A DNA stretch of 64,000 bases from assembly GCA_963791755.1 (NCBI GenBank), contig CAWBTK010000005.1:100508-164507 (forward strand), read 5' to 3'. This stretch comes from an uncultured Planctomycetaceae bacterium (lineage in GTDB: Bacteria > Planctomycetota > Planctomycetia > Pirellulales > PALSA-1355). The position numbers were made by a program, and so were the translations under genes. This document shows, in pieces, positions 20,602-39,566 of this stretch (position 1 is its first letter; each line of letters begins with the position of its first letter). The notes beneath the pieces are model-generated. The model did not search any database, was not told where the DNA came from, and saw only the letters and a list, made by a program, of their open reading frames with translations.

Positions 20602-23600
20602 ATGAATCGCAAATCTCTCTTCGGCCGCCTTTCGGCTTCAACGATTGTAAGCCGACCAGCCGAGCGCCAATCATATTTTCGTTTGCAGCTCGAGCCGCTC
20701 GAAGACAGAAAGCTGCTCACGGTGGCGACCACCTACGTTAACGACAACTGGTACGATACGTCGACCACCGATGGTATTGTCCGCCCTGGCGACGGGATGA
20801 TAAACCTGAATGACACGATTAATCCTGGCGCCATCTTCGGGACGTACGGCACCAGCGCGTTCGGTCTCGCCACGAAATGGAACGGCGGGTCGATCTCAAG
20901 TAACCCAACTAACTATTCGACGACCGCCTACCAGACGATTCATGCCGCCATTCAGGGCACGAACCTGCTGAATGGCTCGGTCGATATTCTTGAAGGAACG
21001 TACAAAGAGTCGGACATCGTCATCGATCGCCCGCTGGCCTTTACCGGTGCCGGCAAGACCGGCGCCACCCGCACGCTGATCATTCCGGAAGACACCGCGA
21101 CTTCGGCGCTTGATGATTCGCAGGATTTCCCCGCCGGCATTCGCGAAGGCATCATCATTTATTCGCCCGACGTGACGGTCAGCAACATCGCGCTAGACGG
21201 CAACGGCAATGCGACGACCACCGCCAATGCCGGCCACACGCTCAACTACCACCAGGGCATCACAACGCTGTACGATCCGTCCATCGGAACGTACAGCTCG
21301 CTGCGTGACGGAAACCTGATTCCAAAGCGCTTGGGAAATCCGGTCGACTCTGTCGCGACTCGCACCCGGGCCAACATTGCCGTGCAGGATGTCGCGGTCA
21401 GCAATGTCTACTTTCACGGCATTACGCTGTCGGCTCTTGCCGGCGAACAGTGGGGCACCAACAACGGCGCGGGCCAGAACGTTGATCGGGCGATCGTGAC
21501 GAACGTCGGCGACGTCGACGGACTGCACACTCAAAACGAAAAACATGTCGGTATCTTGATTCAGAACGTCGACAACGGCCCGTTCGGCGCCCCGGCCGAC
21601 GGTAACATCCGCTACTCGACCGTCACCAACGCCGGCACCGGCATCAAGACCGGCGTTTTTGGCACCGCAAGTTACAATTCGCAAGCCGCTGCCCGCATCC
21701 GTGCCGGCATGATCCAGAACACCGTCATCGACGCCGTCAAACGCGGATATGAGATGGACTTTATGGACGGCAGCGAAGGCCTTCGTGGCAACGTCGCCAC
21801 GTTTAACAACCTCAGCAACAATGCCGAAGGCGTCTACCTCAACCACTCGCGAGCCCTGCTCACCGGCTTTGTGATCAATGGCGCCAAGGTCGGTATCCAT
21901 GTTCAGAACACGCCGCTCACCGGATCGGAAGTCGTGATCCTGGGCATCGGCGGTAACATCTTTACGGGCCCCGGCACGGGCGTCGCCGGCTCGGTCGGTC
22001 TGTTGATCGACAACTCGGCCTCCGAGTCCGACTCGTCCCGCGTCATGCTGGGTTCCGGCACGACGATCTCGGGATACCAGACTGGCGTTCGGGCCGAGCA
22101 AGTCGTACCCGACACCGTGGCCACCGACGGGTCTGGTCATACGGCCAGCCGTATCGAACTCGACATGGCCAATCCTAGCTTCGGCGTCAATGGCACCGGC
22201 ATCGTGTTGGGCAACGGCGCAACCATGTTCGGCAACTATAGCGGCACCTCGTCGTTGACGACCACCGGCAGTGCCATCGTTTCGCCGGGATATCCCAACT
22301 GGGCCAACTATGCTTACCTGGTGCCCGGCAATACAGGAAAGGACCAGAATCCCAGCACGGAGAATTCGCCGGCATTCTTGGCGCCCCCAACTTCCGACGT
22401 CATTAATACCGGTTCCGTCGCCCTCAACAGCGCGACTACGTTCACGCCGTTGCTCACGAATCAAGCGGGTACCACCCCGCTGTTCAATTTCAACGCGGCT
22501 TTGAACTTCCCGTTTGCGTTGGTTCCCGACGCGCCGAACGAAGCCTTGGTGCCCAGCCCCAACGGCGTGCTCTTCAACTGGTACGGTAACCTGACCCAGG
22601 ACGGCTCGGGCACGATCGTCTTGGGCGGTACGGCCACGAACGGCAAGGGTTTGGACTACGCCTTTGCTGGAAACAACAGCGGCCCGATCCCGAATACGAC
22701 TCCCACCCTGTATCAACTCCAGGGAACCGACATCAGCAACCGCACGACGCTGAATATCGTGGCCAAGAAACTGGCCACTAACCAGGCCGAGACCATTGGT
22801 ATCGGTTTGTTCGACGTTCGCGGAAATGCCAACTTGTGGACGTTCAAGATGGCGGACCTCAGTTCGACCGCCTACACCACGCTCAAGGTCAACCTGCTCG
22901 CGCCGTCGATCGACTTGACCGGGCCGGACAGCCATATCGACTTGACGAAGATTGCCGGCTGGGTGTTTGGTGGCGATCAGGGCGCGGTCAACGGAAATCA
23001 GAACGTGCCCCTCGGTTTCATTGTCGACGACATGTACGCCGACAGCATCGGCAGTTCGCAGTTGAATGTGACCGGAAGCGTGAACCTGGGATTGTCTACG
23101 TTGAATCTGTCAGCGTCGCCAACCTTCGTGCCTTCCGCCGGCCAGCAGTTCGTCATCGTCAACAACGATGGTGCGGACGCGGTCACCAGTTCGTTCGCCG
23201 GATTTGCTCAGGGTTCGACCACCGTCATTGGCGGCCATACGTTCTCGATCAGCTACACTGGCGGAACCGGAAACGACGTAGTCCTGACCGAAGAGTCCCC
23301 GATTCTGGACCTCAACGGCGCCAGCGCCGGCACCGGATTCACAAACGATTGGTCGAAGATCCTTGCCGCACCGGTCGACATCACGGCTTCATCCGCCGCG
23401 ACGGTCAACGATGGCGGCGGCACGCTGGTCTCGCTGTCCGCCCAGATTACCAACTGGCACACCGGCGACATCCTGTTGGCCACGCCTCCCGGCGGCAGCG
23501 GCATCACCGCCAGTTGGAACGCCGGCACCAATACTTTGCAGCTCACCGGCTCGTCGAGCGCGGCCAACTACCAGACGGCTCTACGCTCCATCAAGTACAA

Positions 23601-26600
23601 CAACTCGGCCGGCGGCGCTGGCGTCAGCCCGGTCAATATCACCGTCACGGCCAGCGACGGCACGTACACCAGCGCCCCGGTGCTGGCGACGATTACCGAT
23701 CCGGCTCCGCAGCTCGATTTGAACGGCGCGACGGGTGGCACGGGCGGTCAAGCGGCCTGGACTGTCGGCGCCGGCGCGGTCAATATTACCGAGGTCGATG
23801 CGACCGTTACCGACGCCGACGACACGACCCTGGCCTCGATGACCGCCACGATCACCGTTGGGGTGAATATCAACAATTCGCTCACGTTCGATACCACCGG
23901 AACTTCGATTACCGGTACCTACAATGCCGGTACCAGCGTATTGAGCCTCACCGGCACGGATACGATTGACCACTATCAGCAAGTTCTGCGCACGATTAAG
24001 TACAACAACAGTGGCGACCCGGGCGTGAACGAAATTCGCGTCAGCTTCGTCGCCAGCGACGGCGTCGTGACCGGACCGGCGCAACTGTCGATCATCACCG
24101 TCAACCTGCCCTTGGTCGTCGACCTCGCGGGCACGGCCGGCTTGGACAACACGACGAGCTGGGTCAACAACGGTCCGATCAACATCGCCGATATCTCTTC
24201 GGCAATCGTGACGGACACCGTCGACGGGTCGCCCGATAACATCGTGATTACGATCACCAATCCGCACGCCGGCGACATCCTGACCGCCACGGACTCCGGT
24301 GGCGTCACGTCGTCGTGGGACGCGACTAGCAACACGATGACTCTCACCGGCAATGTGGCGGCCGCCAATTATCAAACTGTGTTGAGAACGGTCAAGTACA
24401 ACAACACATTCGGCGGGCCGGGTGTTTCGGTCAACGTCGGCACGGTGAACATTAACGTCGTCGGGCACAGCGGAGCCGTGACTTCGCGCACCGCGGTGTC
24501 GCACATTGTCGTTCCACCAGTGATCGATCTCAACGGCACGACTGGCGTTCAGTCCGCCGGCAACGGCTTCAACGCGACCTGGTCGAACAGCGGTTCGATC
24601 AGCATCACCGATACCGATGCAACCGTGATTTCGCCGGGGCGGCCGAACTTGATCTACATGACGGTCAAGATCACCCAAAACGGCACCAACGGCATCACCG
24701 AGTTCCATACCGGCGACGTGCTGACCGCCAGCACGGCGGGCTTGCCGATTACGCAGACGTACAGCAACGGCGTGTTGACCCTCACGGGCGAAGCCACGCC
24801 GGCCCAGTACCAACAGGTATTGCGTACCATCAAGTACAACAATACCAATGGCGGTCCCGGCGCCGGGGCTCAAATCTTTGTCGAATTCCTGACCGATGAC
24901 GACGACCACAAGAGCACCGTGTCCACTTCGACGATCACGATTAGCGTCCCGTTGTCGGTCGACCTCAACGGCCCGTCCGGCGGAACCGGCTTCATCAACA
25001 ACGTCAGCCCTTGGACGACGTCCGGATCGCCTCAGGCTCCGTTGAGCGCGACAACCGCTCGAGTTACCGACACGGGCGGCACCGATTACACCACAGCCAC
25101 GGGTCGAAACCTGACCTCGATGACTGCGACGATCGGCACCGACCTGGCCAAGAGCGGCGGCGTGCATCAGGGGGACATCCTGACGGCGACCAGCTTGGTC
25201 GGCGGCATCACCCAGAGCTACAACGCGCTGACCGGCGTGTTGACCCTCACCGGCAACAGCTCCTCGGCCAACTACCAGACCGTGTTGCGGAGCATTCGCT
25301 ACGACAACAGCAGCGCGTTTGGCGGACCGGGCGCCGACTTCGTGTATATCTGGTTCGTGGGCGTGGACACGCTCAATATTCACAGCAACGCCGCGCTGGG
25401 ACAACTCGATATCAACTCGAAGGAGAATATCGACCTGAATGGACCGGCGGTGGGTAGTGACTACGCCACCACCTGGACCAACTCCGGTCCGGTCAATCTG
25501 ACCACCAACGATGCCACGGTGAAGGACGGCGATCGGGCTTACCTGACGTCGATGACCGTCAACATCGGCAATCCGCACGCGGGGGACGGGCTCTCGGCGA
25601 TCGTCACCGGCACGAACATCGACGTCCAGGGGATTGGCTCCACGCAGTTGGTCTTCAACGCCAAGCCGCCGCTCAATACCGATGAGTTGGTGAACTGGCA
25701 GACGGTTCTGCGTAGCGTCCAATACTTCAATACCTTGGGCGGTCCAGGAGTGGGTCAGGTCTTTATTGACTTTGACTACACCGACAGCTTCGCGGCGGTC
25801 GGCACCACTCGAACCACGACCGTCAACATTAACGTTGTGTCTAATCAACCACCCGCCCTCGACTTGAATGGCGGCGTGGCGGGCACGGGCTTTGGCTCGA
25901 CGTGGACCAATACCGGGGCCGTCAACATCACCGACGCGGCTGTCGCTGCCGTCACCGATTCGGACAGCGCCAACCTGGCCTCGATCACGGCCACGATTAC
26001 CGGCGGCGCAAACGCCAACAATGTGCTGTCGGCTACCACCACCGGCACGTCGATCTCGGCGAGCTACAACGCCGGGTCTGGCGTCTTGACCCTCTCGGGT
26101 TCGGACACCTTGGCTCACTACCAGCAAGTTTTGCGAACTGTCAAGTACAACAATACCGCCGGTGGACCGGGCGCGGGCCCGGTGACGGTCAGCTTCGTCG
26201 CCAATGACGGTGCTCTCAACAGCACGCCCGTCGTGGCCACGATTTCGACCCGCACGGCTTCCGTTGCCAAACAGTTGCTGTTCTACAACCAGTCCGGCAC
26301 GTCGACTCGTTATGACCACAACGATCTGGCGATCAACTCGTTCGACGACTTGGCCATCGCCACCGACAAGACGGCCTACACGTGGGAGAATCCGGGTGCG
26401 GCCACGTTTGCCAACGTCTCCAGCTACACCAAGGGGATCAACGGCATCATGGTCGATATCGCCGGGCCCCACGGCACGATTACCGCCGCCGATTTCATCT
26501 TCCGCGTTGGTAATAACAACTCGCCCGGTTTGTGGACCACGGCCAATGCTCCTACCAGCATCTCGGTGCGGGCTGGGGCCGGCGTCAGCGGCTCGGATCG

Positions 26601-27285
26601 CGTCGAGATCATCTGGAACACCGGTGCTCCGTTCAAGCAGTGGCTCGAGGTCATTACCTTGGCCACCGACAACACGGGTCTGCCGCAGAAGGCCGGCTAT
26701 CCGGCGGGTCAGGCCGACGCGTTCTTCTTCGGCAATGCTCCGGGAAATACCGGCACCGGCGATACGGGATCCAACTCGCTGGTCAATTCGCTCGATGAGG
26801 CCGCCATCCGGGCCAACAACGCCTTGGTGAACGCGAACATTCCGATCACGAACGTCTACGACGTGGGTCGCAATGCCAGCGTGAACGTGGTCGATGAAAG
26901 TGCCGCTCGTTTGAACGGCACCAACCCGTCGACCACGCTCAAGTACCTCAACCTCACCACGGCTCCGGCGGCCCCCGAGGCCGACGGCGGCGATGTCAGC
27001 CCCTTGGTTGCGGGAGACAGTGCCTCTGGCGACAGCGGCGTGGCTTCGGCCTTGACGGCCTCGGCGCCGACGGCCGCCCCGGCTGGCCTGCCAAGGTGGA
27101 TTTTGAACCGGCTGGATAGCGTCGACCTGAATTCGGGCACCCCGGCCAAGTTGTTCCAGCACCTGCACGACGTCAACATGCCGGCCACTCGAGCCTTGCT
27201 ACAGAAGTTCGATGCCGCGGCGGATGCCCTGGGTCTGGACGACGAGCTGCTGGACTCGCTGCTGGCCGATTTGGGATTGGAATAG
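20602..27285 (+). CDS. giant (2227 aa) secreted surface/adhesin-like protein: N-terminal LEDR motif, parallel beta-helix region, 7 tandem ~135-157-aa modules, C-terminal planctomycete-type domain
   Basis: A single uninterrupted ORF. N-terminus: MNRKSLFGRLS...FRLQLEPLEDRKLLTV. Beta-helix-like segment: ILEGTYKESDIVIDRPLAFTGAG.... It also has FSISYTGGTGNDVVLTEE and seven LDLNG...YQxVLRxIKYNN modules. C-terminal region: KQLLFYNQS...GINGIMVDI...GSDRVEIIW...FFFGNAPGNTG. Confidence 0.9.
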   Translation: MNRKSLFGRLSASTIVSRPAERQSYFRLQLEPLEDRKLLTVATTYVNDNWYDTSTTDGIVRPGDGMINLNDTINPGAIFGTYGTSAFGLATKWNGGSISSNPTNYSTTAYQTIHAAIQGTNLLNGSVDILEGTYKESDIVIDRPLAFTGAGKTGATRTLIIPEDTATSALDDSQDFPAGIREGIIIYSPDVTVSNIALDGNGNATTTANAGHTLNYHQGITTLYDPSIGTYSSLRDGNLIPKRLGNPVDSVATRTRANIAVQDVAVSNVYFHGITLSALAGEQWGTNNGAGQNVDRAIVTNVGDVDGLHTQNEKHVGILIQNVDNGPFGAPADGNIRYSTVTNAGTGIKTGVFGTASYNSQAAARIRAGMIQNTVIDAVKRGYEMDFMDGSEGLRGNVATFNNLSNNAEGVYLNHSRALLTGFVINGAKVGIHVQNTPLTGSEVVILGIGGNIFTGPGTGVAGSVGLLIDNSASESDSSRVMLGSGTTISGYQTGVRAEQVVPDTVATDGSGHTASRIELDMANPSFGVNGTGIVLGNGATMFGNYSGTSSLTTTGSAIVSPGYPNWANYAYLVPGNTGKDQNPSTENSPAFLAPPTSDVINTGSVALNSATTFTPLLTNQAGTTPLFNFNAALNFPFALVPDAPNEALVPSPNGVLFNWYGNLTQDGSGTIVLGGTATNGKGLDYAFAGNNSGPIPNTTPTLYQLQGTDISNRTTLNIVAKKLATNQAETIGIGLFDVRGNANLWTFKMADLSSTAYTTLKVNLLAPSIDLTGPDSHIDLTKIAGWVFGGDQGAVNGNQNVPLGFIVDDMYADSIGSSQLNVTGSVNLGLSTLNLSASPTFVPSAGQQFVIVNNDGADAVTSSFAGFAQGSTTVIGGHTFSISYTGGTGNDVVLTEESPILDLNGASAGTGFTNDWSKILAAPVDITASSAATVNDGGGTLVSLSAQITNWHTGDILLATPPGGSGITASWNAGTNTLQLTGSSSAANYQTALRSIKYNNSAGGAGVSPVNITVTASDGTYTSAPVLATITDPAPQLDLNGATGGTGGQAAWTVGAGAVNITEVDATVTDADDTTLASMTATITVGVNINNSLTFDTTGTSITGTYNAGTSVLSLTGTDTIDHYQQVLRTIKYNNSGDPGVNEIRVSFVASDGVVTGPAQLSIITVNLPLVVDLAGTAGLDNTTSWVNNGPINIADISSAIVTDTVDGSPDNIVITITNPHAGDILTATDSGGVTSSWDATSNTMTLTGNVAAANYQTVLRTVKYNNTFGGPGVSVNVGTVNINVVGHSGAVTSRTAVSHIVVPPVIDLNGTTGVQSAGNGFNATWSNSGSISITDTDATVISPGRPNLIYMTVKITQNGTNGITEFHTGDVLTASTAGLPITQTYSNGVLTLTGEATPAQYQQVLRTIKYNNTNGGPGAGAQIFVEFLTDDDDHKSTVSTSTITISVPLSVDLNGPSGGTGFINNVSPWTTSGSPQAPLSATTARVTDTGGTDYTTATGRNLTSMTATIGTDLAKSGGVHQGDILTATSLVGGITQSYNALTGVLTLTGNSSSANYQTVLRSIRYDNSSAFGGPGADFVYIWFVGVDTLNIHSNAALGQLDINSKENIDLNGPAVGSDYATTWTNSGPVNLTTNDATVKDGDRAYLTSMTVNIGNPHAGDGLSAIVTGTNIDVQGIGSTQLVFNAKPPLNTDELVNWQTVLRSVQYFNTLGGPGVGQVFIDFDYTDSFAAVGTTRTTTVNINVVSNQPPALDLNGGVAGTGFGSTWTNTGAVNITDAAVAAVTDSDSANLASITATITGGANANNVLSATTTGTSISASYNAGSGVLTLSGSDTLAHYQQVLRTVKYNNTAGGPGAGPVTVSFVANDGALNSTPVVATISTRTASVAKQLLFYNQSGTSTRYDHNDLAINSFDDLAIATDKTAYTWENPGAATFANVSSYTKGINGIMVDIAGPHGTITAADFIFRVGNNNSPGLWTTANAPTSISVRAGAGVSGSDRVEIIWNTGAPFKQWLEVITLATDNTGLPQKAGYPAGQADAFFFGNAPGNTGTGDTGSNSLVNSLDEAAIRANNALVNANIPITNVYDVGRNASVNVVDESAARLNGTNPSTTLKYLNLTTAPAAPEADGGDVSPLVAGDSASGDSGVASALTASAPTAAPAGLPRWILNRLDSVDLNSGTPAKLFQHLHDVNMPATRALLQKFDAAADALGLDDELLDSLLADLGLE
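23305..26250 (+). repeat. seven tandem in-frame coding modules inside the giant gene
   Basis: The [LIV]DL[NA]G module starts are at 23305, 23713, 24118, 24523, 24958, 25429 and 25858 (spacings 405-471 nt). Each module ends with ...A.YQ.[AV]LR[ST][IV][KR/Q]Y[NDF]N...GGPG....[IV].[VF]...DG. Confidence 0.85.
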
Positions 27286-27373: not shown

Positions 27374-27539
27374 AAAGTCCAACATTGAGTTTTAAGGGGC
27401 TTCGTCCCCTATTGGGTGGCTTAGATGACAAGGATGTCCCAAGGTTTTGTGTGACGGCGAGGGATCGGGGATTGACGTTCAGTCCAACCCGCGCCATGAA
27501 GTGAACAACGTGAAAATAAATCCAAAAAGGAGCGCGTGT

Positions 27540-28199
27540 ATGCAACGAACAGTTGGTTTATCTCTTGCCATCCTGCTCTGCCTGACGGCAGTTGCCCAGG
27601 CTGTGCCTACAGTTGTGGTTGGCAATCACATCTTGCAGCCGAATATGGCGGGCCAGACGATTCAGATCAGCGTGAGCGGCATTGTCCCCAATGCCACCAC
27701 GAGCCCAGCCGACGACAGCAATGTGAACGGTGGGTTGTTTTCCTTTTCTGTGGACGGCGGCGGACCGAATTACGGCAATCCGGCCGGCCCGATCATTACC
27801 AACATGGACTTCTTGTCGGGTCCCACCATTTGGGTAGCCCCGAGCACTCCGTCCGGTATTGGTACTCCGGCTGACTACTACGACCCCAGCAACCAGTTGG
27901 CTAGCTCTGGCTTCCTGACGCTGTCAAATGGTTTCGTTAACGTCACCGGCGGTTTGCTGGTCACGTTGACGATTGACACGACCGGCTTTGGTCCGGGCGT
28001 GCACGGCTTGGAGATGATTAGCCTTGCTTTGGAAGACCAGACCGGTGTGACGCAGTTCACCGGTGGTAACAGCGTGCAGGACATCACCAACGGCCAGATC
28101 ACCATCGTCCCCGAGCCTAGCTCGGTGGTCCTTGGCTTGTTCGCGGTCGCCGGTTTGGGCGCTGTTGCAATCCGCAAGCGTCGTGCCCGTCGTGCCTAA
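27540..28199 (+). CDS. PEP-CTERM-anchored secreted protein (219 aa)
   Basis: ATG at 27540 with an AAGGAG RBS 8 nt upstream. Signal peptide: MQRTVGLSLAILLCLTAVAQA. The C-terminus ...ITIVPEPSSVVLGLFAVAGLGAVAIRKRRARRA is a PEP motif, then a TM helix, then a basic tail. Confidence 0.85.
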   Translation: MQRTVGLSLAILLCLTAVAQAVPTVVVGNHILQPNMAGQTIQISVSGIVPNATTSPADDSNVNGGLFSFSVDGGGPNYGNPAGPIITNMDFLSGPTIWVAPSTPSGIGTPADYYDPSNQLASSGFLTLSNGFVNVTGGLLVTLTIDTTGFGPGVHGLEMISLALEDQTGVTQFTGGNSVQDITNGQITIVPEPSSVVLGLFAVAGLGAVAIRKRRARRA

Positions 28200-28234
28200 A
28201 CGGCCGACTGGTATTATGTAGTAACGAATTGAAG

Positions 28235-28267
28235 CCGCACGTGGAGAAATCCACGTGCGGTTTTTTT
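28235..28267. terminator. bidirectional-looking intrinsic terminator between convergent genes
   Basis: Stem CCGCACGTGGA (28235-28245), loop GAAA, stem TCCACGTGCGG (28250-28260), followed by T7 (28261-28267). Confidence 0.8.
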
Positions 28268-28309: not shown

Positions 28310-28597
28310 CTAATGATCCGACTCGGCCGGCTCCTCGTAGTCGACCGCGTCGGCGTCGACCGGGGCCGCGTAGTCGTCCAGTTCGGACATCTCCGGCGCC
28401 AGCGTGGGCGTCATTTGCGTGTCGACGCTGTCGTCCATGGGTTCGAAGACCGAACCGCGGCGAGCGCCGAAGTTGCAATTCGGCCCGTTGGGGCCCTCGA
28501 CCGGACTGCAATAGTCGAAAGGGGTTTGGCACATGGCACAGCCGGCCAGCGCGGCGAAAAGCGCCAGCCCGACCAGGGCCGAACAGCGACGTATCAT
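28310..28597 (-). CDS. small Cys-rich lipoprotein with acidic tail
   Basis: ATG at 28597 after a GAGGAG RBS. MIRRCSALVGLALFAALAGC (lipobox LAGC), then CQTPFDYCSPVEGPNGPNC and a D/E-rich C-terminus. Confidence 0.65.
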   Translation of the reverse strand: MIRRCSALVGLALFAALAGCAMCQTPFDYCSPVEGPNGPNCNFGARRGSVFEPMDDSVDTQMTPTLAPEMSELDDYAAPVDADAVDYEEPAESDH

Positions 28598-28690
28598 CTG
28601 AGGCTCCTCGACTGTTTCCACCGAGTACCAGGCCGCTTGGCTGAAGCCCGCCGTGCTTCCGGAATCGAAGCGTCCGGCGCTGGCGAAGTG

Positions 28691-30620
28691 CTAGCGACGG
28701 CACCTGGCCAGTCGCAACAACCTGTACCGAATAGGACGGTTGTTATCATCGGCAAATCGGTACTCAAGAATTGGAATAACTTCGCCGATTTGCCCAAACT
28801 CGTCGTGCGAGCCTGAAATGGCCGATGCGAGCCGGCCCGAAGCGAGGCCGTCGGCGGAAGCGCCCCTAGCGGCGCCAACCGGTTCGGCCAACAGAAGATA
28901 GGTGAATCCGGCCTGGGCGGCATGGCTCCAGCCGGCGTCGGACCGGGGGGCGGTGGGAGCGGCTGGCGATGCCGGGCCAGGGGCGTGGCGGCTGGCAGGG
29001 CAATTGAAATAGAATGTGCTGGCGACGCCACCGCCTGCCGCGTCCTCGCACCACAGCCGATCGCTGCCGTTCTGGATGCGATTCAGCATCAAAGCAGCCC
29101 GATAAGTCGGATCGCGCGCCAACAAAAAATCATCGCGCCGCTGCCAACCGGTGGCCACGGCCCAATAGTCGCCCACGGCCGTCCAGCGGACGACTGCCGG
29201 GGCCAGGGCAAGCAACCCGGCCGCGATGCAAATCATTGCGGTCGCCAGTCGTGGCAGTCTCGCTGTCTCGTGCCAGGCCCAGGCCGCCAGAAGCGCGGCG
29301 AGCGGAATCAGCGGCGACCACCAGCGACCCGGCCAGGGACTCACGAGCGACAAGGCGATATACGCGATCGCAACGCCCATCACCAGGCTGAGGCCGCGCA
29401 AACGGCGAGCGGCCAGCAACAGTCCCAGGGCCAGCAGGATCAAGGGGCCCAGGTGGCGCGGCGATCGAATGCAGGGATTGCCTTTCCGCCGAACGATTCA
29501 GGAAAAAGCCAAGAAAGAACAGCCAGGGTCCGGCCGTGACAAGCGTGACGCCTAAGAACGTTCGGCCGGCCTCGGCGAACTCTCGACGCGACTCGCTTGC
29601 GGAACCGTAAACGTACGCACCGACGAGGCCCAGGGCCGCGGCGAAGGCAAGTCCAGCGGGCATCGTGGCGATGGCTCCGCCCAGCATCAGGCCACCTGCG
29701 ATTGGCCAGCCAGTCATCTCCAGATGAACCACGATCCGACCAAGAGCCGCCAGGGCGAGCGCACAGAAGACCGCCAGGCCGAGGTCCGCCAGCGGCAGGC
29801 CCAATTGATACTGGACTCCCGGGCAGAGCAGCGCCAGGCAGCCGGCGAACCGAGCGTAGCCGGAGGGCAGAAACTCTTGCGCCGCGAGCACGGTGGCCAA
29901 GGCCATCAGCACGCCGATTCCCCAATGGACCAGCGCGGCCGCCACCGGGCCGTCCAGCGCCAGGGCACAGACATACCACATTTGGACCAGGTTTGGCGGC
30001 GCCGAGCCAACGAAAAGCCCCCCGGAAAAACCGTGCTCCAGCAGCATCTCCTTGGGTAGTGCCAAGGAGCCGGAGATCACCTCCGCCGACGTTGTGGGAG
30101 CCAAAGCCACCACAAGCGAGAACAACAAGACGAGCCCCGCGAGCAGGGCCGCGAAGAGGCTTCCCCGTGGCGGCGGCGAGGAAGGCGGTGCGCATTCGTT
30201 CGCGGTGGCCGCTGAGATGAAATGCCCGGTGTCGGCGGCGAGATAGATACAGGCCAGTTCGACCAAGGTCCAGAAATTGGCGGCGAGCGTTATTCCGGCG
30301 ATTACCGGGGAGTAGACCCAGCCGGCCGCGGCCAGCACCAGCAACAGGGTGCCCCCGCACGCCAACCCCAGGGCCACGCTCCAGACGGTGACGAACAAAG
30401 GGTCGGCCCGCGGTAGCTTCAGCTGCCGCAACACCGGCCTTCCGAAGCCAAAAGCCGCGCCGCCTAGAGCGGTCGCCACGGCAATTGACCACAAGATTTC
30501 GCAGATGGCTTGCGGCGAAGGCACGATTCGAGATCTCGGAGAATGCGGGCGTGGCTTGGAGTGAGTCGCCGCGCCAACAGGATCAATAGCCCTCGATCGT
30601 CCACCAGCTCCAAAATGCAA
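28691..30620 (-). CDS. large polytopic membrane protein with C-terminal soluble domain (possible GT-C-like glycosyltransferase/polymerase); 1-nt insertion near 29444-29447; start uncertain
   Basis: ORFs 29130..30620 (TTG track start; alternative GTG at 30524) and 28691..29443 join as ...SIAAPPGP|LILLALGLLLAARRL once one C is removed from a C4 run. There are more than 10 hydrophobic helices. I recognise no diagnostic family motif. Confidence 0.6.
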
Positions 30621-30807
30621 AGTAGGACGCGGTCACGGCCAGCACCCAGGCGATCAAAGCCCAAGACACGTAAGCCGTCGCTCCGGACCTGGCCGGCGGC
30701 TGGTCGGAGCGATTCAACAGCGCGGCCGCCACGGCGCGACGGGCCATTGTCAGTCCGCGCGAACGATGGGCGGAGGCTGGACGGTCTTCCCGTACCGGCG
30801 CAATCAT
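30583..30807 (-). CDS. small membrane protein (74 aa), hypothetical
   Basis: ORF 30583..30807. The start forms an ATGA overlap with the upstream HAD gene stop (30804-30807). One C-terminal TM helix: VSWALIAWVLAVTASYFAFWSWW. Confidence 0.45.
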   Translation of the reverse strand: MIAPVREDRPASAHRSRGLTMARRAVAAALLNRSDQPPARSGATAYVSWALIAWVLAVTASYFAFWSWWTIEGY

Positions 30808-31619
30808 GCGTGAGGCTCCCTCGACAAAGCCCGCTCGAATGCGGCATGGCCCATCGGACCCTTTCCTGCCGCCCGATCGGGCGGCAGTCCGTTCGAGGGG
30901 CGCAGCAACGTGAGCAGATCTTCGAAACGATTCAGGTGGACGTCGGCCGTTGTGGGCTCGTGAAAATTAAAGGCCACGGTCCTGAGGCCGGCAGCCTGGG
31001 CGCCGGCCAAATGGGCTCGCTCGTGCCCTACGTAGACCACGTCGCAGGCAGGCAGCGCCAAGTGGTCAAGCATGGCGGCATAGCACTGGCCGGCGGGCTG
31101 GGAGTACTCGATCTCCAAGGAGGAGAGCACGGCCTGGAACCGGCCCGACAGGCCGAGCCGATCCAACAGCTCGCTCGTTTTGACGGCCGGATGCGGAGCG
31201 TCGGACCAGGCCAGCAACGGCAGACCACGGTCGGAAAGTCGCGTTAGCGTCTTGACCACGCCCGGCAATGCCCGCAGATTGTGCTCGAGCGACTGCCGTT
31301 GCACGCGGCTGGCGGCCTCGATCTCATCGACCTGCGCCCAGGAGAATCCCCAAGCGAGCAGGAACGACTGCAAGGCCTCGGTCGGCTCGCGGCGACCACG
31401 ATGGACCTCGACCAGATAGTTCGCGTCCCAGTCGCGGAGAAAATCGACCGGGTCGCTGGAGAAACCCATCCCCGAGACAAGTCGCAGCAACCACCGCCGC
31501 CAAAGCGTGGCGTCGTAAATCACATCGGGCACGTCGATGATGAGGGCCCTAACGGGAGCCGACTCGCAAGCCGCGGTCAAACCCGGTGGAAACCAGTTAG
31601 CCGGACGATCTTGATTCAT
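30804..31619 (-). CDS. HAD-superfamily hydrolase
   Basis: ORF 30804..31781; ATG at 31619 (MNQDRPANW...). LIIDVPDVIYD is a degenerate HAD motif I. The ...VVYVGHE... segment lies in a haloacid-dehalogenase-like layout. Confidence 0.6.
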   Translation of the reverse strand: MNQDRPANWFPPGLTAACESAPVRALIIDVPDVIYDATLWRRWLLRLVSGMGFSSDPVDFLRDWDANYLVEVHRGRREPTEALQSFLLAWGFSWAQVDEIEAASRVQRQSLEHNLRALPGVVKTLTRLSDRGLPLLAWSDAPHPAVKTSELLDRLGLSGRFQAVLSSLEIEYSQPAGQCYAAMLDHLALPACDVVYVGHERAHLAGAQAAGLRTVAFNFHEPTTADVHLNRFEDLLTLLRPSNGLPPDRAAGKGPMGHAAFERALSREPHA

Positions 31620-31687
31620 TTCGATTCCATTCAGCCGGCTTCCTTGCCAGCCGCCCGTGCGCGAGCCTGCACGCCGCAGTGCGTTTG

Positions 31688-32438
31688 CTAAACGACGGCC
31701 TTGGCCCGATTCAGCAGCGCCATGCGTTGGCGCAAGGCCGGTTGATGGTCGAGCAGATCGGCGATCCGTTGCCAATCCCACTCGTCCGATCCCAGCGCCT
31801 CGTAGATGACCTGGGCATGTTCCCAGTCTTCCTCGAAATCGATCTTCAACCTCAAATCCTCGCGATCCAGCTCGGCCGGCAGCGGGATCAGCCGCACGTT
31901 AAACAACTCGGGATGGGCGTAGAGGTAGGAGGTGACATGCTCGCGGTCCGCGATCCGCTGTGCCTCGAGGTTGGCACGCCGCAACGCGTCGGCCGAGCAC
32001 CATTCGGCCAGCAATCCGACGGGAGTCAGGATCGCCGGGCGTCCGTCGGCTCCGCGGTAGCTGATGTAGTCGCAGTTGGGATGGGCGTCGGCGGTGCTGA
32101 CGAGTCGGTCGATCAGCACCGGATCGACAAACGGGTGGTCGGCGCAAACGCGCACCGCGGCGCGAGCCCTGAACTGGTCAAGCGTGGCAGCAAAGCGCGG
32201 CTAGCGGATCGTTGGCGGCCGGCGCGAAGACCGAAACATCCGGCGGCACGAGCGCCCGCACCACGGGCACGTGGCAGGGATCGCCGACCAGTGCCACGAC
32301 TCCATCGAGCCGCTGGCAGTCCGTGACTCGGCGCACGGCCCATTCCAGCAGCGACTTGCCGCCCAGCTTGCGACCGATCTTGGATTCGACTTCTCCGTGT
32401 CCCAAGCGAACTTCGACGATTCCCAACGTGTTAAGCAT
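31688..32438 (-). CDS. SpsF/acylneuraminate-type cytidylyltransferase family protein, 1-nt insertion near 32199
   Basis: ORFs 32178..32438 (MLNTLGIVEVRLGHGEVESKIGRKLGGKSLLEWAVRRV) and 31688..32155 (..RVCADHPFVDPVLIDRLV...) join as ...NDPLA|RFAATLDQFRARAAVRVCADHPF once one C is removed. Confidence 0.7.
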
Positions 32439-32764
32439 ATAGTGCGGCCTCGATTCCTTTCTCCGATAGCGTCGCGGATGATGTCACTTGCCCCGAGCGG
32501 GCGGAGTCTAGCAACTATCGTCAAACGAGGTCAATACAAAGCGTTGGCCGTGGCCGAGACGTTTGGGACGAGGGCGCCGCGGCGCAGTTGCTGCGCTCAG
32601 GAGAATCCGTCGCTAGCAACCGCGGGCGTGAATGGGGGGTTCCCAAGCGGTCAATCACGAACGAGGGAATCCGTCTTGGACCGCGCCGACCGGGCAGCTA
32701 CAATTCGCCCCCTGCCAGCAATGGCCGACGCGACTCCATTCTTCATCAGGCAAGGAGGCCGAAA

Positions 32765-33694
32765 GTGGAGCGAATATTGATTACCGGAGTCGACCACGCG
32801 CTGGGCGCCAATCTCGCGCTCCAGTGGGCCGGCCGCGCGGAAGTGATGGGGTTATACGGCCGACACGCGGTCGCCTCCGCGGCGATCGGAACGGCCGCTT
32901 GGGACGGGGCCGATCTGGCGGCATTCGCCGGTATCTGCGCGGCGTGGCAACCGCGATGGATCGTGCACTGTGGACCGCTTTCGGCCGCAAGCTGGGACCC
33001 CGTCGACCGCGCTTTGGATGCCAAGGACGAACCACAGGTCGTCGCTAAACTGGCGGCGATCGCACACGAGTCGGGCGCCCGACTGACAGTACTTTCCAGC
33101 GACGTGGTCTTCGCCGGGCCGCGGATGTTTCATGAGGAGACGTTTCCGACCGGGAATACGACGCCCCGGGCCGTGCTGACCAGGAATATGGAACGGGCTT
33201 TAGAGGACAGCGGCGCCCTCGTCGTGCGGACGCACGCATTCGGCTGGAGCCCCGTGGCCGCTCAAGCGGGATTTGCCGAGCTGACGGCCCGTAGTCTGGC
33301 CACCGGCCAGGCTCTGGCGGCTGACGGGCGGCGCTATGCCACGCCGATCTTGGCGACCGACCTTGCCGAGTTATTGTGGCGAGCCCACGAGCTGCGGCTA
33401 TGTGGCCTTTATCACCTGGCGGGCGCAGAACGGACCAGCGCCTTTCGATTTGCGTCGGAATTGGCCGCGGCATTGGACCTGGATCAGCCCTCGGGCAGTT
33501 CCTCGTCGCAGCCGAACGGCGCGGAACACGAGGAAACCTCACTTAACAGCCGCCGAGCCCGTCGCGCTTTGGAGCGAGCCACGCCGCTGTTGAGTGAGTG
33601 CCTGCGTCGATTCGCCGCGCAGGCCGAGAACGGCTGGCGGCAAGCGTGGAGTTCGAGCGCTGGACCGACATTGCAGCACGAAGTGGCCGCGTAA
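32765..33694 (+). CDS. RmlD-like sugar-nucleotide reductase/epimerase-fold protein (degenerate NAD motif)
   Basis: In the frame of ORF 32588..33694. GTG at 32765, 6 nt after AAGGAGG. VERILITGVDHALGANLA...LTVLSSDVVFAG...YHLAGAERTSAFRFA resembles the dTDP-4-dehydrorhamnose reductase substrate-binding-domain family. Confidence 0.6.
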   Translation: MERILITGVDHALGANLALQWAGRAEVMGLYGRHAVASAAIGTAAWDGADLAAFAGICAAWQPRWIVHCGPLSAASWDPVDRALDAKDEPQVVAKLAAIAHESGARLTVLSSDVVFAGPRMFHEETFPTGNTTPRAVLTRNMERALEDSGALVVRTHAFGWSPVAAQAGFAELTARSLATGQALAADGRRYATPILATDLAELLWRAHELRLCGLYHLAGAERTSAFRFASELAAALDLDQPSGSSSSQPNGAEHEETSLNSRRARRALERATPLLSECLRRFAAQAENGWRQAWSSSAGPTLQHEVAA

Positions 33695-33752: not shown

Positions 33753-34415
33753 CTAACCGTGGGGAAGCCCCAGCAGTTCATACAGCCGCGGATCGGCGAG
33801 CGAGCTCGCGATGAGGGCCGCGCCGCTGAAGTCGTGGCGCAGGCTCGTGCCGCCGGGCACGGCCACCGCGATGGCCCCGGCCGCGACCGCGGCCCGGCAG
33901 CCGTTGGCGCTGTCTTCCAACACCAGCAACCGGGCCGGATCGACGCCGAAAAGCCGCGCGGCGAGAAGATAAATCTCGGGATGCGGCTTGCCTTGCTCGA
34001 TGTCCTCCGCGGTCAGGATGAATTCGAAGCGCGGCGCGAGCTCGAATCGCGAGAGCACGTCGCGGACAAAGTCGGGACCGCTGCTGGTGGCGATGGCCTT
34101 GGGCACGCCGGCCCGCTCCAACTCGGCCAACAGCGGCAACAGTCCGGGCATCAGGGCCAGTTGCTCGTCCAATAGCGTGGCGAAGATCTCGTCGGTTTCG
34201 GCGGCCAACTGCTCGACCGAGCAGTCGAGTTCGTGGGCGTCGATCATCAATTGCAGCGCCACGCTGGCAGGTCGCCCCATCATCGCGTCCAGCAGTTCCG
34301 CGGTAAACTCGCGGCCGCGGCGGCGGAGCATTTCGCCTCCGACTTGCTGATAGAGTTCCTCGGTATTGAACATCAAGCCGTCGAGATCGAAGGCGACGGC
34401 GGCGGGCCGGGACAT
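33753..34415 (-). CDS. HAD-IA phosphatase (beta-phosphoglucomutase-like family)
   Basis: ATG at 34415: MSRPAAVAFDLDGLMFNTE (motif I DxDG) ...ATSSG... GKPHPEIYL ...VLEDSANG. Confidence 0.85.
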   Translation of the reverse strand: MSRPAAVAFDLDGLMFNTEELYQQVGGEMLRRRGREFTAELLDAMMGRPASVALQLMIDAHELDCSVEQLAAETDEIFATLLDEQLALMPGLLPLLAELERAGVPKAIATSSGPDFVRDVLSRFELAPRFEFILTAEDIEQGKPHPEIYLLAARLFGVDPARLLVLEDSANGCRAAVAAGAIAVAVPGGTSLRHDFSGAALIASSLADPRLYELLGLPHG

Positions 34416-34691: not shown

Positions 34692-34928
34692 ATGCTTCCA
34701 AAAATGCGCACCATTCGCCGGTTTCTCTGCTGCGAAGATGGCCCCTCGGCCGTCGAATACGCGGTCGTGCTCAGCGTTATCTCGGCGCTAGGCATGGCAG
34801 GCGCCCGATCCGTCGGCATGGGCGTGTCGTCAACATTTACGAAGATCGCGGGCTCCGTGGACAGTGGCGGCGGAGGCGGTAGCGCCAGCTCAGGCAGCGC
34901 CAGTTCAGGTAGCGCAAGCTTCGGGTAG
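34692..34928 (+). CDS. flp: Flp/Fap-family type IVb (Tad) pilin; ends at a TAG inside a 15-bp repeat (the alternative repaired reading runs to 35084)
   Basis: MLPKMRTIRRFLCCEDGPSAVEYAVVLSVISALGMAG carries the Flp prepilin motif G/xxxxEY followed by a hydrophobic helix. The C-terminus runs into ...SGGGGGSASSGSASSGSASFG*. Confidence 0.8.
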   Translation: MLPKMRTIRRFLCCEDGPSAVEYAVVLSVISALGMAGARSVGMGVSSTFTKIAGSVDSGGGGGSASSGSASSGSASFG

Positions 34929-34997
34929 CGCAAGCTCGGGTAGCGCCAGTTCGGGTAGCGCAGCTCGGGTAGCGCCAGTTCGGGTAGCGCCAGTTCG
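34878..34997 (+). repeat. 15-bp tandem repeat GGTAGCGCCAGTTCG x8 (encodes GSASS)
   Basis: Units start at 34878, 34893, 34908, 34924, 34939, 34954, 34968 and 34983. Unit 3 is 16 nt (extra T near 34921) and unit 6 is 14 nt (missing A near 34961). Confidence 0.95.
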
Positions 34998-35103
34998 GGC
35001 AACTCCGGCGGCGGCAAAGGAAGCGGAAATAGCGGCGGGAATGGAGGCAAGGGGGGCGGCCAGGGGAGAGGCAACGGCAGTTGACATTGCGGAGGCGAAC
35101 AAA

Positions 35104-35577
35104 ATGGCAGTCTACAAAAGGCGACAGTTGCTGATTGACCCCAAGGTCCAAGGGTCGCTTATCCGGCGTGTCGTGATCTATTGGCTCAGTTGCGTCGGCA
35201 CGGTCGAATTCCTCGCGCTCACTTGGGATATCGCCACAGGACCCGAGCAGCAAAGCTTTTTCGCGTATTTTCAAAACCATGACTGGCAAGCCGTCGGCGT
35301 CCGGCTGTTGATCAGTTCCTTTCTGCTGATCCCGATTACGTATGACATGCTGCGATTGAGTAACCGCTTTGCCGGTCCGGTCTATCGCATGCGCCGGATA
35401 CTGCGAAAAGTGGCAACCGAGGGAATCGTGGAAGGGGTTCACTTGCGCGAAGATGATTACTGGCACGAATTTGCAGAGGATCTGAATGCGGCTCTTAGCC
35501 GGCTTTCGAATCGGGACGCCGACCCGGAGAACGCCGCCGGTTCATCGTTGCCCAGAGAAGTCTCGGCGGCGCCTTAG
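35104..35577 (+). CDS. two-TM membrane protein with HAMP-like segment (hypothetical)
   Basis: ATG at 35104 within ORF 34864..35577: MAVYKRRQLLIDPKVQGSLIRRVVIYWLSCVG.. ..VRLLISSFLLIPITYDMLRLSNRFAGPVYRMRRIL. The function assignment is weak. Confidence 0.5.
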   Translation: MAVYKRRQLLIDPKVQGSLIRRVVIYWLSCVGTVEFLALTWDIATGPEQQSFFAYFQNHDWQAVGVRLLISSFLLIPITYDMLRLSNRFAGPVYRMRRILRKVATEGIVEGVHLREDDYWHEFAEDLNAALSRLSNRDADPENAAGSSLPREVSAAP

Positions 35578-37096: not shown

Positions 37097-37717
37097 CTAC
37101 AGCCGACAATCATCCAGGCTGGCGACCAATTCGGCCAGAACCATACTCGTGGCCCCCCAGATTCGCTCGGCCTGCCAGCGGTAACAGGGGGCGAAAAATG
37201 AGATCCCGCCGACATTGCGCTCCAGTCGGCCCGAATTGGCGGGGTCGAACAGGTGCTCGAGCGGCACTTCAAGCAGGCGATCGACTTCGCGAGGATTGGG
37301 GCTCCAGTGGGGCGGAGCATCGACGGCACCCACCCAGGGAGCAATTTGGTAATTGCTGGCGAACAGGTACAACGGCGAGAGCTGACCCAGCACTTCGATC
37401 GAGTCGGCCGGCGCGCCCAGCTCCTCGGAGAATTCACGAAGCGCCGCCTGCCGACTATCCTCGCCAGCCTCGATCAGCCCGCCCGGCAAGCTGACCTGGC
37501 CAGCGTGGTCCGGCATGTCGGCGCTTCGCAATGTGAGCGGCAGGTGCCATTGCCCCTGGTGAGGATAGAGCAAAATCAAGACGGCCGCCGGCCGGGCGCG
37601 ACGGCGCCGGTCCAAGATGGCGCCCGAAGCTGAGTTCCGGCTGATAGCGCGCCTGTGCGGCCCAACCGGGCAGGGGTTGCCGCAAACGGGCAGCCAATTG
37701 CATGGGCAAGTCGGCAT
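37097..37717 (-). CDS. NUDIX hydrolase (CoA pyrophosphatase-like)
   Basis: ORF 37097..37717. Nudix box: GQVSLPGGLIEAGEDSRQAALREFSEELG. Confidence 0.85.
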   Translation of the reverse strand: MPTCPCNWLPVCGNPCPVGPHRRAISRNSASGAILDRRRRARPAAVLILLYPHQGQWHLPLTLRSADMPDHAGQVSLPGGLIEAGEDSRQAALREFSEELGAPADSIEVLGQLSPLYLFASNYQIAPWVGAVDAPPHWSPNPREVDRLLEVPLEHLFDPANSGRLERNVGGISFFAPCYRWQAERIWGATSMVLAELVASLDDCRL

Positions 37718-37849
37718 TCAAGCTCTTCGGCGCCTCGACGTTTTAGGCCATCGCACGACGGAAACCAGCCGCGTTATCTTATCGCCAAGGGTCATCAGCG
37801 AAAAGAACACCGCGCGGCCACGGGGAAACGCGACGCATCGCCGACAATG

Positions 37850-39450
37850 CTAGCGCGGGGCGGCGGCGTTGTTGTTGTCTTTTTCGGCCGCCGCGTCGCG
37901 CAAGCGGTAGATGGCCACGCTGGGGTTGATCGGCCCGACGCGGGGCAGATTCAGCGCCGGGTAAGCCGTGGTGATCACATAATCGGCTCCAAATTCCGCG
38001 CCCAGTTCGCGCAGCCCGCGGACCCCAGCTCGGCCAATGAGTTGCGCCAGATCGAGGTGCTACCGGGCGGCATGCCGTGAATCAGGTCGTTGCGGCGCCG
38101 CCACTCGACGATCCCGGGGGCGTCTTGCGGAATATCCTTGCGATTGACCACCTCGGCCCGACCGGCATACCAACGAAACGTTTGCGACAGGCGAGGCGTA
38201 AGAAACACGGCAGCGGGAGGCGTTTCGGCGGCGGCCCACTGACACGATTCGCGCCAGGCGGCGACGTTCGCGATGGCGGCATCGGCCGGAGGGCGAGGAT
38301 CGAGATGCCGCCGCCACATGGTTTCGCCCAATTGGCAACCGACGATCAGTAGCGCACATGTCACGCCAGCGGCGTGCCAGGACGGTCGCGCGGCCTGCCA
38401 CCGATAGACGATGGCCGACAGCACAAGCGCCGCGCCCAGCGGCACCATCACGTCGGACGTGCGGAACCAATAATACCTGAGTAGCGCGGCCGCCAGATCG
38501 GCGTGCATCGGCGCGAGCAGCCCGATCAACATTCCGATCGCGGAAATTCCGACCGCCGCGGCCACGAAAGTGCGCAGCCGCTGGAAGCCACGATTCGACG
38601 GAGCAAAATAGACCAGCCCGGCGAGCGCCGCAATCAACAACAGATGTCGCAAGACAAACAGCGGCGGAAATCGCTGGGGCAACAGGTGGTGGTAGAGCCG
38701 GTCGAAGACATAAATCCGGTTCGCTTCGGCGACAACGTCGGAAGGAATTCCGCGTGTCAACGCCAAGGCGGGCAACAAGCCCGGCAGCGCCAGCAGCAAA
38801 CCGCCGGCCAGGGGAAGCACGAGCCGGCTGAGCGGCGGCCGGTCGGGACTGGCGAGCCATACGACCATCGTGGCCACCACGGCCCAACCTCCGACGATGA
38901 CATGCATCGCTGAAGCAGCGCCGAACAGCAACAGGGCTCGGCCCCAGCGATCGTGTAGGAGCTGTTCTAGCCCAAAGAACACCAGCGCGTAGGCAAAGCC
39001 CTTGGCTTCCACGCCGCCGATGACCCATTCGCCGGCCATGTGCAGCCGGTCGTTGAACGCGACGAAAAGCCCTGCCGACAGCACCGCGTACCAGGCGGCC
39101 GGAACGAGCGCCGCGCTCAGCCGTCGCCAGGCCCAGGCCAAAAACAGCCAAGTGGCGATCCGCCCGCACCAGGCTAACGCCGGCAGCGAGAGCCATTGCG
39201 ACAACCAGCCGACGGTCCAGTAGAAAACCTGGTGCGCGTCAGCCGAGTTACAAAAAAAATCATTCGCGCACCAGCCGGCGTCCCAATAGTGCCTGGCCTT
39301 GCTCAGGTAGTGCGGTTCGTTCACCTCCGGCGCGGCCCAGCCGCCCTGGATGAAGAAAATCAGAAAAATGAGCGTAACTTCGCCGAAGGCCGGCCAACGA
39401 GAGGACCGGTCGCGTGGCCATTCGGAATCGTCGACCGCCGAACTGTGCAT
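37850..39450 (-). CDS. large polytopic membrane protein (GT-C-like, hypothetical), 1-nt deletion near 38014
   Basis: ORF 37975..39450 plus my own translation of the next frame to the TAG at 37850-37852: ...SLAELGSAG|LRELGAEFGADYVITTAYPALNLPRVGPINPSVAIYRLRDAAAEKDNNNAAAPR*. There are about 12 hydrophobic helices. N-terminal motif: NEPHYLSKARHYWDAGW. Confidence 0.6.
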
Positions 39451-39498
39451 AACGACTCTCAGACTAATCTGGTCTCGTCGGAATAACCAGTCCGCCCC

Positions 39499-39528
39499 TT
39501 GCGTCGGCCTTCACTGGCCCCCTATATT
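39499..39528 (+). promoter_or_regulatory. candidate promoter (TTGCGT-N18-TATATT) upstream of prpB
   Basis: Hexamers read directly, 39 nt upstream of the ATG at 39567. Confidence 0.25.
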
Positions 39529-39566
39529 CGCACAGGAATCCATTGTTTTGGCTCGCAGGTATCGAT

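Follow-up and report, generated by a model that had tools for sequence, protein, structure and literature searches.

A reduced Pirellulales envelope-glycan cluster retains a predicted GT-C-fold membrane protein and enzyme homologues with degenerate catalytic motifs

Our study reports on a seven-gene cluster within a 64,000-nucleotide stretch of DNA from an uncultured Planctomycetaceae bacterium of the order Pirellulales (GenBank assembly GCA_963791755.1, contig CAWBTK010000005.1, positions 100,508 to 164,507), the whole of which is referred to here as the window. By comparing it with about 115 related loci we show that this region descends by vertical inheritance from a large Pirellulales envelope-glycan cluster, of which it is a reduced form. 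That large cluster ends in a predicted GT-C glycosyltransferase (GT) and, at its most complete, includes a NeuB-type sugar-acid branch. The identity and history of the locus are well supported; its function we infer from sequence. Taken as a whole, the explanation developed below, which joins the reduction of the cluster, the GT-C identity of its membrane protein, the repurposing of its soluble proteins and the reading of its frameshifts as errors, stands in our judgement evenly balanced between right and wrong. The genes of the cluster and their associated features are as follows.

28310..28597, minus strand: Cys-rich small lipoprotein; open reading frame (ORF) with lipobox LAGC, last gene of the minus-strand operon
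28691..29456, minus strand: predicted GT-C-fold membrane protein, C-terminal part; last transmembrane (TM) helices and periplasmic alpha/beta domain, in a frame that differs from that of the N-terminal part
29455..29460, minus strand: +1 insertion splitting the GT-C gene, context gccgcgcc
29457..30524, minus strand: predicted GT-C-fold membrane protein, N-terminal part; start GTG 30524 by homology, not 30620
30583..30807, minus strand: small single-TM protein of 74 aa; ORF, alternative start ATG 30747
30804..31619, minus strand: HAD1, an atypical HAD-fold protein (Pfam PF00702, 4e-10)
31688..32438, minus strand: CTP-like protein, an SpsF/NeuA-type CTP_transf_3 (cytidylyltransferase) homologue; split by a +1 insertion at ~32195-32201
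32439..32764, no strand: divergent intergenic region between the CTP-like operon and the RmlD-like gene, with one weak sigma-70-like match facing each way
32765..33694, plus strand: RmlD-like SDR-fold protein (PF04321, 72.6 bits)
33753..34415, minus strand: HAD2, a canonical HAD-IA protein of the beta-phosphoglucomutase / sugar-phosphatase type; start ATG 34415 by homology

Reduction of a large envelope-glycan cluster

The full Pirellulales cluster occupies about 17 kb and runs in the order HAD2, RmlD-like, CTP_transf_3, NeuB, HAD1, GT-B-like, flippase-like, CDP-OH-transferase-like, GT2, GT2, deacetylase-like, GT4, GT9, small TM and GT-C. The window retains HAD2, the RmlD-like, CTP-like and HAD1 proteins, the small TM protein, the GT-C protein and a lipoprotein, while NeuB and the stretch from the GT-B-like gene to GT9 are gone, and no homologue of any of these missing genes was found within the 64 kb. 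The observation of a first-pass annotation of the window that its cluster holds no GT-A or GT-B glycosyltransferase is borne out. A homologue search with the CTP-like protein, which gave 970 matches, led to the loci that connect the two forms. At L037-L040 the CTP-like gene is followed by a NeuB-family synthase, HAD1, a GT-B-like protein of ~600 aa (Epimerase_2 / TIGR04396, the 'surface carbohydrate biosynthesis' type), a Polysacc_synt_3 flippase-like protein, a CDP-alcohol-transferase-like protein and GT2s. The backbone of L039 is that of the window (citrate synthase, isocitrate lyase (ICL), DUF6798, NUDIX, HAD2, RmlD and CTP) and continues into NeuB, HAD1 and the GT-B-like, flippase-like and CDP-OH-like genes; because the flanking backbone is shared, the two positions are orthologous. 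Most loci that contain the GT-C gene show the remainder of the series, namely flippase-like, CDP-OH-like, GT2, GT2, a conserved protein of ~483 aa termed x483, GT4, GT9, small TM and GT-C, and in L024 HAD1 is joined through to GT9 and GT-C in a single co-directional run. The gene series is confirmed by 80 metagenome loci, many of which carry the whole of it. The x483 protein (L003 5277-6764; L036 9997-11448; ~20 other loci) is fixed between GT2 and GT4, has a borderline polysaccharide-deacetylase match (23.6 bits against a gathering threshold of 23.1) and survives in some reduced clusters.

The reduced form is itself widely conserved, and the gene-neighbourhood check proposed at first pass bears out the co-conservation of its genes. 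Five close relatives (L001, L002, L005, L006 and L010) share the entire order of HAD2, RmlD-like (on the opposite strand), CTP-like, HAD1, small TM, GT-C and lipoprotein, with a CTP-like gene intact at 249 aa and a GT-C gene intact at ~600 aa. More distant relatives, whose GT-C proteins are ~33% identical (L011, L012, L018, L026 and L036), keep the CTP-like, HAD1 and GT-C genes, and at least 16 loci, in different metagenome-assembled genomes (MAGs) of Pirellulales and Thermoguttaceae, show the reduced order CTP-like, HAD1, small TM, GT-C. The small TM gene, whose ATG overlaps the HAD1 stop codon as ATGA, as had been noted before, is the constant partner just upstream of the GT-C gene, full clusters included (where it is labelled 's75'); in relatives its product has 55-75 aa and a conserved C-terminus, ASYFAFWSWWTI[DE]GY. 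Orthologues of the lipoprotein, 51-81% identical, lie directly 3' of the GT-C gene in L001, L002, L005 and L006; the window lipoprotein has no match in Pfam or NCBIfam searches, and its ratio of nonsynonymous to synonymous substitution rates (dN/dS) is 0.24 against L001.

HAD2 forms the upstream edge of the conserved block, and in a relocated block in L033 it travels with the RmlD-like, CTP and HAD1 genes. The DUF6798, NUDIX and GNAT genes beyond it were considered as parts of the module and rejected as backbone neighbours: the DUF6798-NUDIX pair accompanies citrate synthase and ICL in L034 and L035, where the CTP, HAD and GT-C genes are missing, and in L033 it is the opposite side that carries the HAD2-RmlD-CTP-HAD1 block. 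The possibility that the DUF6798 membrane protein is a second GT-C protein was likewise dismissed, neither an hhalign comparison with the GT-C family nor a profile search of the PDB having produced a match.

The full clusters resemble the known gene modules for nonulosonic and ulosonic acids (NeuB-NeuA, PseI-PseF, KdsA-KdsC-KdsB, and KDN-9-P synthase, phosphatase and CMP-KDN synthetase) in that a CTP_transf_3 protein adjoins a HAD-fold protein, and in that the orthologous clusters hold a NeuB-family synthase between the two, together with a canonical nucleotide-binding loop. This synthase scores 295 bits with TIGR03569 and 220 bits with PseI, both below cutoff. Unlike these modules, the window has no synthase, its loop is degenerate and its HAD1 is missing both the D+2 Asp and the Lys of motif III. 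The sialic-acid-like flavour that had been read into the window cluster holds for its history, since NeuB lies between cytidylyltransferase and HAD in the orthologous clusters; the window lineage itself has no synthase. The components all belong to known families, and literature searches on DUF6798 and on nonulosonic acids in Planctomycetes returned nothing on this cluster; as far as could be found, neither the locus nor its stepwise reduction, in which catalytic motifs are lost in parallel, has been described.

Fold and divergence of the membrane protein

The membrane protein of ~610 aa, which the first-pass annotation had placed in no family and proposed for a structure search, is by its predicted structure a GT-C-fold protein of the PMT/PMT_2 (GT39/GT83-like) lineage. 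An AlphaFold2 (AF2) model of the homologue P0001, which is 64% identical to the window protein (pLDDT 78.5, pTM 0.82), has ~15 helices up to residue 457 followed by an alpha/beta domain, an arrangement with which the hydropathy of the frame-corrected window protein agrees. In a Foldseek comparison of this model with the PDB, ranks 1-23 are all GT-C proteins (ALG9, ALG12, AglB, STT3, PglB, AftA, Pmt4, EmbB, ALG3 and PimE). The best E value is 3e-6 (ALG9), and the query-normalised TM-scores lie between 0.26 and 0.46 (0.38-0.46 for matches with E<=0.001). The same comparison returned no transporter, an outcome that would have told against a role in glycan transfer, and no WaaL, Wzy or exosortase matches. 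The pieces of the window protein and their fusion have no Pfam match, and NCBIfam searches of the pieces and a PDB search with a family profile yielded nothing useful, so that the GT-C identity came only from the fold comparison and from more conserved orthologues. Two of the latter, from the full clusters L003 and L024, exceed the Pfam PMT gathering threshold (27 and 42 bits against 22.7), and the PMT_2 threshold is also passed by full-cluster orthologues. Because these orthologues pass and the window protein does not, the latter is a diverged offshoot and no recognisable member of PMT/PMT_2 (PF02366/PF13231).

The extent of this divergence is seen in the comparison with 20 full-cluster GT-C proteins. 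Of the 125 alignment columns that are at least 95% conserved among them the window protein keeps 63, and it keeps 15 of their 46 polar invariant positions; a conserved loop of ~50 aa is deleted. In the DALCYH motif of a periplasmic loop, a D-x-x-x-Y-like motif that we take to be reminiscent of the DE..Y of ArnT and PMT, the Asp has become Glu in the window and the CYH residues are lost. The Asp of APPTAGDALCYH, at a putative catalytic position assigned by analogy, is invariant in the 20 full-cluster orthologues, is Glu throughout the window clade and is Ala or Ser in several other reduced-cluster proteins. With the PMT/PMT_2 families (GT39 protein O-mannosyltransferases and GT83 ArnT-like lipid A aminoarabinosyltransferases) the window protein shares a polytopic N-terminal membrane domain and a periplasmic C-terminal domain. 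It differs from those systems in having no MIR domains and in that no gene for a GT2 polyprenyl-phosphate glycosyltransferase or a flippase lies near the window cluster.

The fold bears directly on the pathway that had been put forward for this cluster, in which a cytidine monophosphate (CMP)- or other nucleotide-linked sugar is activated, trimmed by the HAD phosphatase and transferred directly at the membrane to the neighbouring giant protein, PEP-CTERM protein or Flp pilin. GT-C enzymes use donors that are lipid-phosphate-linked, not CMP or other nucleotide sugars, and activation, trimming and transfer would thus have no direct chemical link; in sugar-acid pathways, moreover, the phosphatase acts before CMP activation and not after it, so that the proposed order is the reverse of the canonical one. 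The model was right about the families and the tight operon structure, and the pairing of NeuB with a canonical cytidylyltransferase in the orthologous clusters speaks for it. Against it stand, in addition, the absence of a sugar-acid synthase from the window cluster and the degenerate catalytic motifs described below. Its substrates fare no better: nothing links the giant protein or the Flp pilin to the cluster, the PEP-CTERM gene adjoins it only in close relatives, none of the three is co-conserved beyond these, and the relatives do not have the inserted Flp region. We therefore regard this pathway as improbable. As an active route from CMP-sugar through phosphatase to transferase it is unsupported, because the local enzymes are absent or have lost their hallmark residues.

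Loss of catalytic motifs in the soluble proteins

The assignments made at first pass to an SpsF-type CTP_transf_3 protein, a HAD protein, an RmlD-like protein, a polytopic membrane protein with a periplasmic C-terminal domain and a lipoprotein all agree with ours, and no component of the window cluster reaches equivalog level in NCBIfam. After frame correction the CTP-like protein matches PF02348 with 38.9 bits (gathering threshold 22.6) and PF12804 with 41.9 bits (threshold 27), the raw ORFs singly falling below threshold. Its best solved relative is an SpsF-type cytidylyltransferase of unknown substrate (PDB 6OEW, E 3e-7), to which it corresponds over the same length of 250 aa, including the C-terminal RLxxDxxEDxE helical part. 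The two differ in their motifs: 6OEW has ARMGSTRLPGK and GDCP where the window has VRLGHGEVESK and ADHP. The nucleotide-binding loop, ARxGSTRLxGK in canonical form, is thus replaced in the window, and in the window clade it is hypervariable, even in length, between invariant flanks. Among 116 CTP-like homologues the loop is canonical in 17 and degenerate or hypervariable in 99, and its state follows the neighbouring gene: it is canonical (ARLGSTRLxxK) in all seven loci in which NeuB follows the CTP-like gene and in none of the 55 loci without NeuB. The dN/dS of the CTP-like protein is 0.03-0.09.

HAD1 follows the CTP-like gene in 46 of the 55 loci with a degenerate loop, and scores 40.7 bits with PF00702 and 39.9 bits with PF13419. 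Its motif residues were assigned by alignment to beta-phosphoglucomutase (beta-PGM). Motif I reads D-x-[PTAGC]-[DN]-V in all versions, so that the D+2 Asp, the general acid/base residue, is absent throughout; in the window it is DVPDV, with Pro at D+2, and the window clade has Gln for the motif III Lys and GHE as motif IV (dN/dS 0.21). The RmlD-like protein has the RmlD_sub_bind fold, and its nearest PDB relatives are structures of RmlD (dTDP-4-dehydrorhamnose reductase), 2GGS and 8G22. Its score with TIGR01214 is 58 against an equivalog cutoff of 224. The degenerate NAD motif remarked on at first pass reads GVDHALG, with no GxxGxxG; the window clade has this glycine motif disrupted. Also missing, in all orthologues examined and in comparison with 2GGS and 8G22, are the Tyr and Lys of the catalytic YxxxK (dN/dS 0.13). 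HAD2 is canonical, with FDLDG as motif I, 95 bits with Pfam HAD_2 and 112 against a cutoff of 153 with TIGR02009.

Purifying selection thus acts on the retained proteins, most strongly on the CTP-like protein, the dN/dS of the GT-C protein being 0.24-0.42. From the combination of lost hallmark residues and maintained constraint, our preferred reading is that the soluble look-alikes are repurposed partners in a possibly non-catalytic module. They would no longer carry out sugar-acid synthesis, dephosphorylation and CMP activation; the CTP-like, HAD1 and RmlD-like proteins would instead serve as cytoplasmic partners, probably by ligand binding or scaffolding. The MAT2B regulatory subunit is a non-catalytic RmlD-like protein, and offers an analogy, though only that, for a regulatory role of the RmlD-like protein here. 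At the periplasmic face, the GT-C protein would work together with its small TM partner and the lipoprotein on a glycolipid or glycan of the envelope; if the GT-C step is still catalytic, its donor would be polyprenyl-phosphate-linked and made elsewhere in the genome. More tentatively, at a level of confidence well short of probable, we propose that after the loss of NeuB and the cytoplasmic glycan-assembly genes the CTP-like, HAD, RmlD-like and GT-C proteins were retained as a pseudoenzyme module under strong purifying selection (dN/dS about 0.05 for the CTP-like protein), now serving the envelope without catalysis, for instance in sensing, gating or scaffolding.

The main rival to repurposing is a split but active pathway, in which the proteins remain competent despite their odd motifs, the synthase, the lipid-carrier glycosyltransferase and the flippase are encoded elsewhere, and the GT-C protein passes a polyprenyl-phosphate sugar on to either lipid A/core or a surface protein in the periplasm. 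Purifying selection on all seven genes speaks for it, as do the secure GT-C fold, the conservative change of Asp to Glu in the DALCYH-equivalent motif and the fully canonical HAD2; the DMGDV motif of HAD1, unusual even in clusters that contain NeuB, may be a native active form, and inspection covered 64 kb of the genome. What makes this pathway unlikely in our view is the perfect agreement between loop state and NeuB presence, and the hypervariability of the loop in the window clade, insertions and deletions included, which is unexpected for a working triphosphate-binding loop. To this are added the changes of HAD1 Lys to Gln and motif IV Asp to Glu in that clade, the lack of Tyr and Lys in every version of the RmlD-like protein, and the loss of most GT-C polar invariants along with the conserved loop.

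Several considerations weigh against repurposing and should be set beside it. In the window CTP-like protein the first Arg and last Lys of the loop survive, as does the D-x-P motif; the GT-C protein has a Glu at the putative catalytic position, and residual or altered activity of both could persist. Mean identity is 36% among reduced-cluster GT-C proteins against 53% among full-cluster ones, so part of the loss of conservation reflects greater divergence. Other parts of the genome may carry the NeuB, flippase-like and GT2/GT4/GT9 genes, the search having extended over 64 kb, and catalytic roles were set by analogy with KdsB/NeuA, beta-PGM, RmlD and ArnT/PMT. We know of no precedent for a pseudo-cytidylyltransferase or pseudo-HAD protein partnering a GT-C protein.

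The graded series from full through NeuB-less to stripped-down clusters, with the presence of NeuB perfectly linked to an intact loop, nevertheless provides a testable case of enzymes turning into conserved non-enzymes. For these uncultured organisms that account is drawn from comparison of sequences; if true, one bacterial order would display, with unusual clarity, a natural series that takes an entire pathway from its active to its repurposed state.

Frame breaks and neighbouring sequence

Coding sequence for every named family is present where the first-pass annotation had placed it. The membrane protein and the cytidylyltransferase are not single ORFs, however, and the frameshifts within them had been read across silently: the intervals assigned to them, 28691-30620 (1930 nt) and 31688-32438 (751 nt), are not multiples of 3. 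The 5' limit of the former is also set too far upstream, since homology places the start at GTG 30524. The membrane protein is divided between an ORF at 29130..30620, which is real coding sequence only to ~29457, and an ORF at 28691..29443 in a different frame. Three-frame translation and intact orthologues locate the switch near 29456, where an extra base lies within 'gccgcg[c]cac' (~29455-29460); homologues read S-V-A-T-H-L-G-P-L at this point and the window S-I-A-A-[extra c]-H-L-G-P-L. The C-terminal part, 28691..29456, aligns with residues 379-599 of the intact L001 orthologue, and the fused, frame-corrected protein matches homologues of 590-666 aa from one end to the other, across 93-95% of its length. 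In the CTP-like gene, ORFs at 32178..32438 and 31688..32155 are separated by an extra base within 'gcc[g]cgc' (~32195-32201; D-P-L-A-[g]-R-F-A-A-T), with the switch near 32198.

Frame breaks were sought by tblastn with the intact proteins of the syntenic relative L001, and indels were placed by protein-guided inspection, as DNA alignment to L001/L005 (74-82% identity) was too gapped. For frameshift mapping a plot of third-position GC content (GC3) by frame was too noisy and a codon-usage frame tracker was more useful. Six of the 12 genes shared with L001 are frame-broken in the window (DUF6798, NUDIX, CTP-like, GT-C, PrpB/ICL and citrate synthase). Each broken gene has exactly one +/-1 indel and otherwise no stop codons or other lesion, and GCGCG contains three of the six indels, where 8% would be expected by chance. 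Past the breaks, dN/dS against L001 is 0.05-0.2, rising to 0.42 for the GT-C C-terminal domain (a misaligned upstream segment of NUDIX in the dN/dS table was ignored), and the CTP-like gene shows 0.05-0.09 on both sides of its break. Because the segments past the breaks are still under purifying selection, we consider that the two frameshifts, in the GT-C and CTP-like genes, are most likely assembly indel errors and not biology.

Under genuine decay the cluster would be pseudogenising in this genome, with two true frameshifts and with degenerate motifs as the sign of a relic that has lost its function. Such decay would account for two of the seven genes being frame-broken and for the relaxation of catalytic residues across reduced clusters. 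We judge it very improbable, and the least favoured of the readings considered here. Identical single-indel breaks occur in housekeeping genes (citrate synthase, PrpB and EutB), locally about one per 2-3 kb; broken genes carry one indel each and no other lesion; constraint continues downstream of the breaks; and many other lineages preserve an intact reduced architecture. It is the strong constraint on the CTP-like protein, together with the recurrence of this architecture in the loci listed above, that argues against simple decay. A point on the other side is that no frame break interrupts the 6.7 kb of the giant gene, somewhat against expectation for an indel density this high; either the errors are context-dependent or this gene was lucky. 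The density, about one indel per few kilobases in conserved genes of the window, means that findings from this contig that rest on ORF integrity need a frame check.

Of the breaks outside the cluster, four fall within 4.6 kb at 37100-41625, in adjacent conserved genes: NUDIX at ~37590, DUF6798 at ~38030, PrpB/methylisocitrate lyase at ~40063 and citrate synthase at ~41326. EutB (ethanolamine ammonia-lyase large subunit, 2880-4297), 25 kb away, appears as two overlapping ORFs covering Pfam profile positions 1-234 and 226-433, with a one-base deletion near 3590-3610 in a GGGCGCC context. The PhyH ORF (12216-13090) covers only profile positions 90-213 and the BrkB ORF (50506-51672) only 2-198 of 259; the codon-usage tracker changes frame near both, and these are probably additional indel breaks. 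The giant repeat protein (2227 aa, 20602-27285) occupies a single frame over 6.7 kb, with about one indel per 1-3 kb nearby. Split conserved genes also occur in other long-contig MAG assemblies (ERZ250395xx, contig_N naming): the CTP-like gene of L033 (290-1032) is split into 137 + 110 aa and an FGGY gene of L034 (4112-5644) into 121 + 306 aa, so the indel problem is not confined to the assembly of the window.

Around the cluster, the two sigma-70-like matches in the divergent intergenic region compare with 0.7 expected by chance and are weak evidence. A likely terminator, a hairpin with a 15-bp stem followed by a T run (28231-28264), lies between the lipoprotein gene and the convergent PEP-CTERM gene (27447-28199; Pfam PEP-CTERM, 25.6 bits). 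Beyond HAD2, ~1.1 kb is an insertion relative to the relatives, in which the GNAT gene abuts HAD2. This insertion contains, at 34692-35577, the Flp/Fap pilin-like ORF (21.8 bits, below the Pfam threshold), which has a Gly/Ser tail and is overlapped in another frame by a 237-aa ORF repeating SGSASSGSA.

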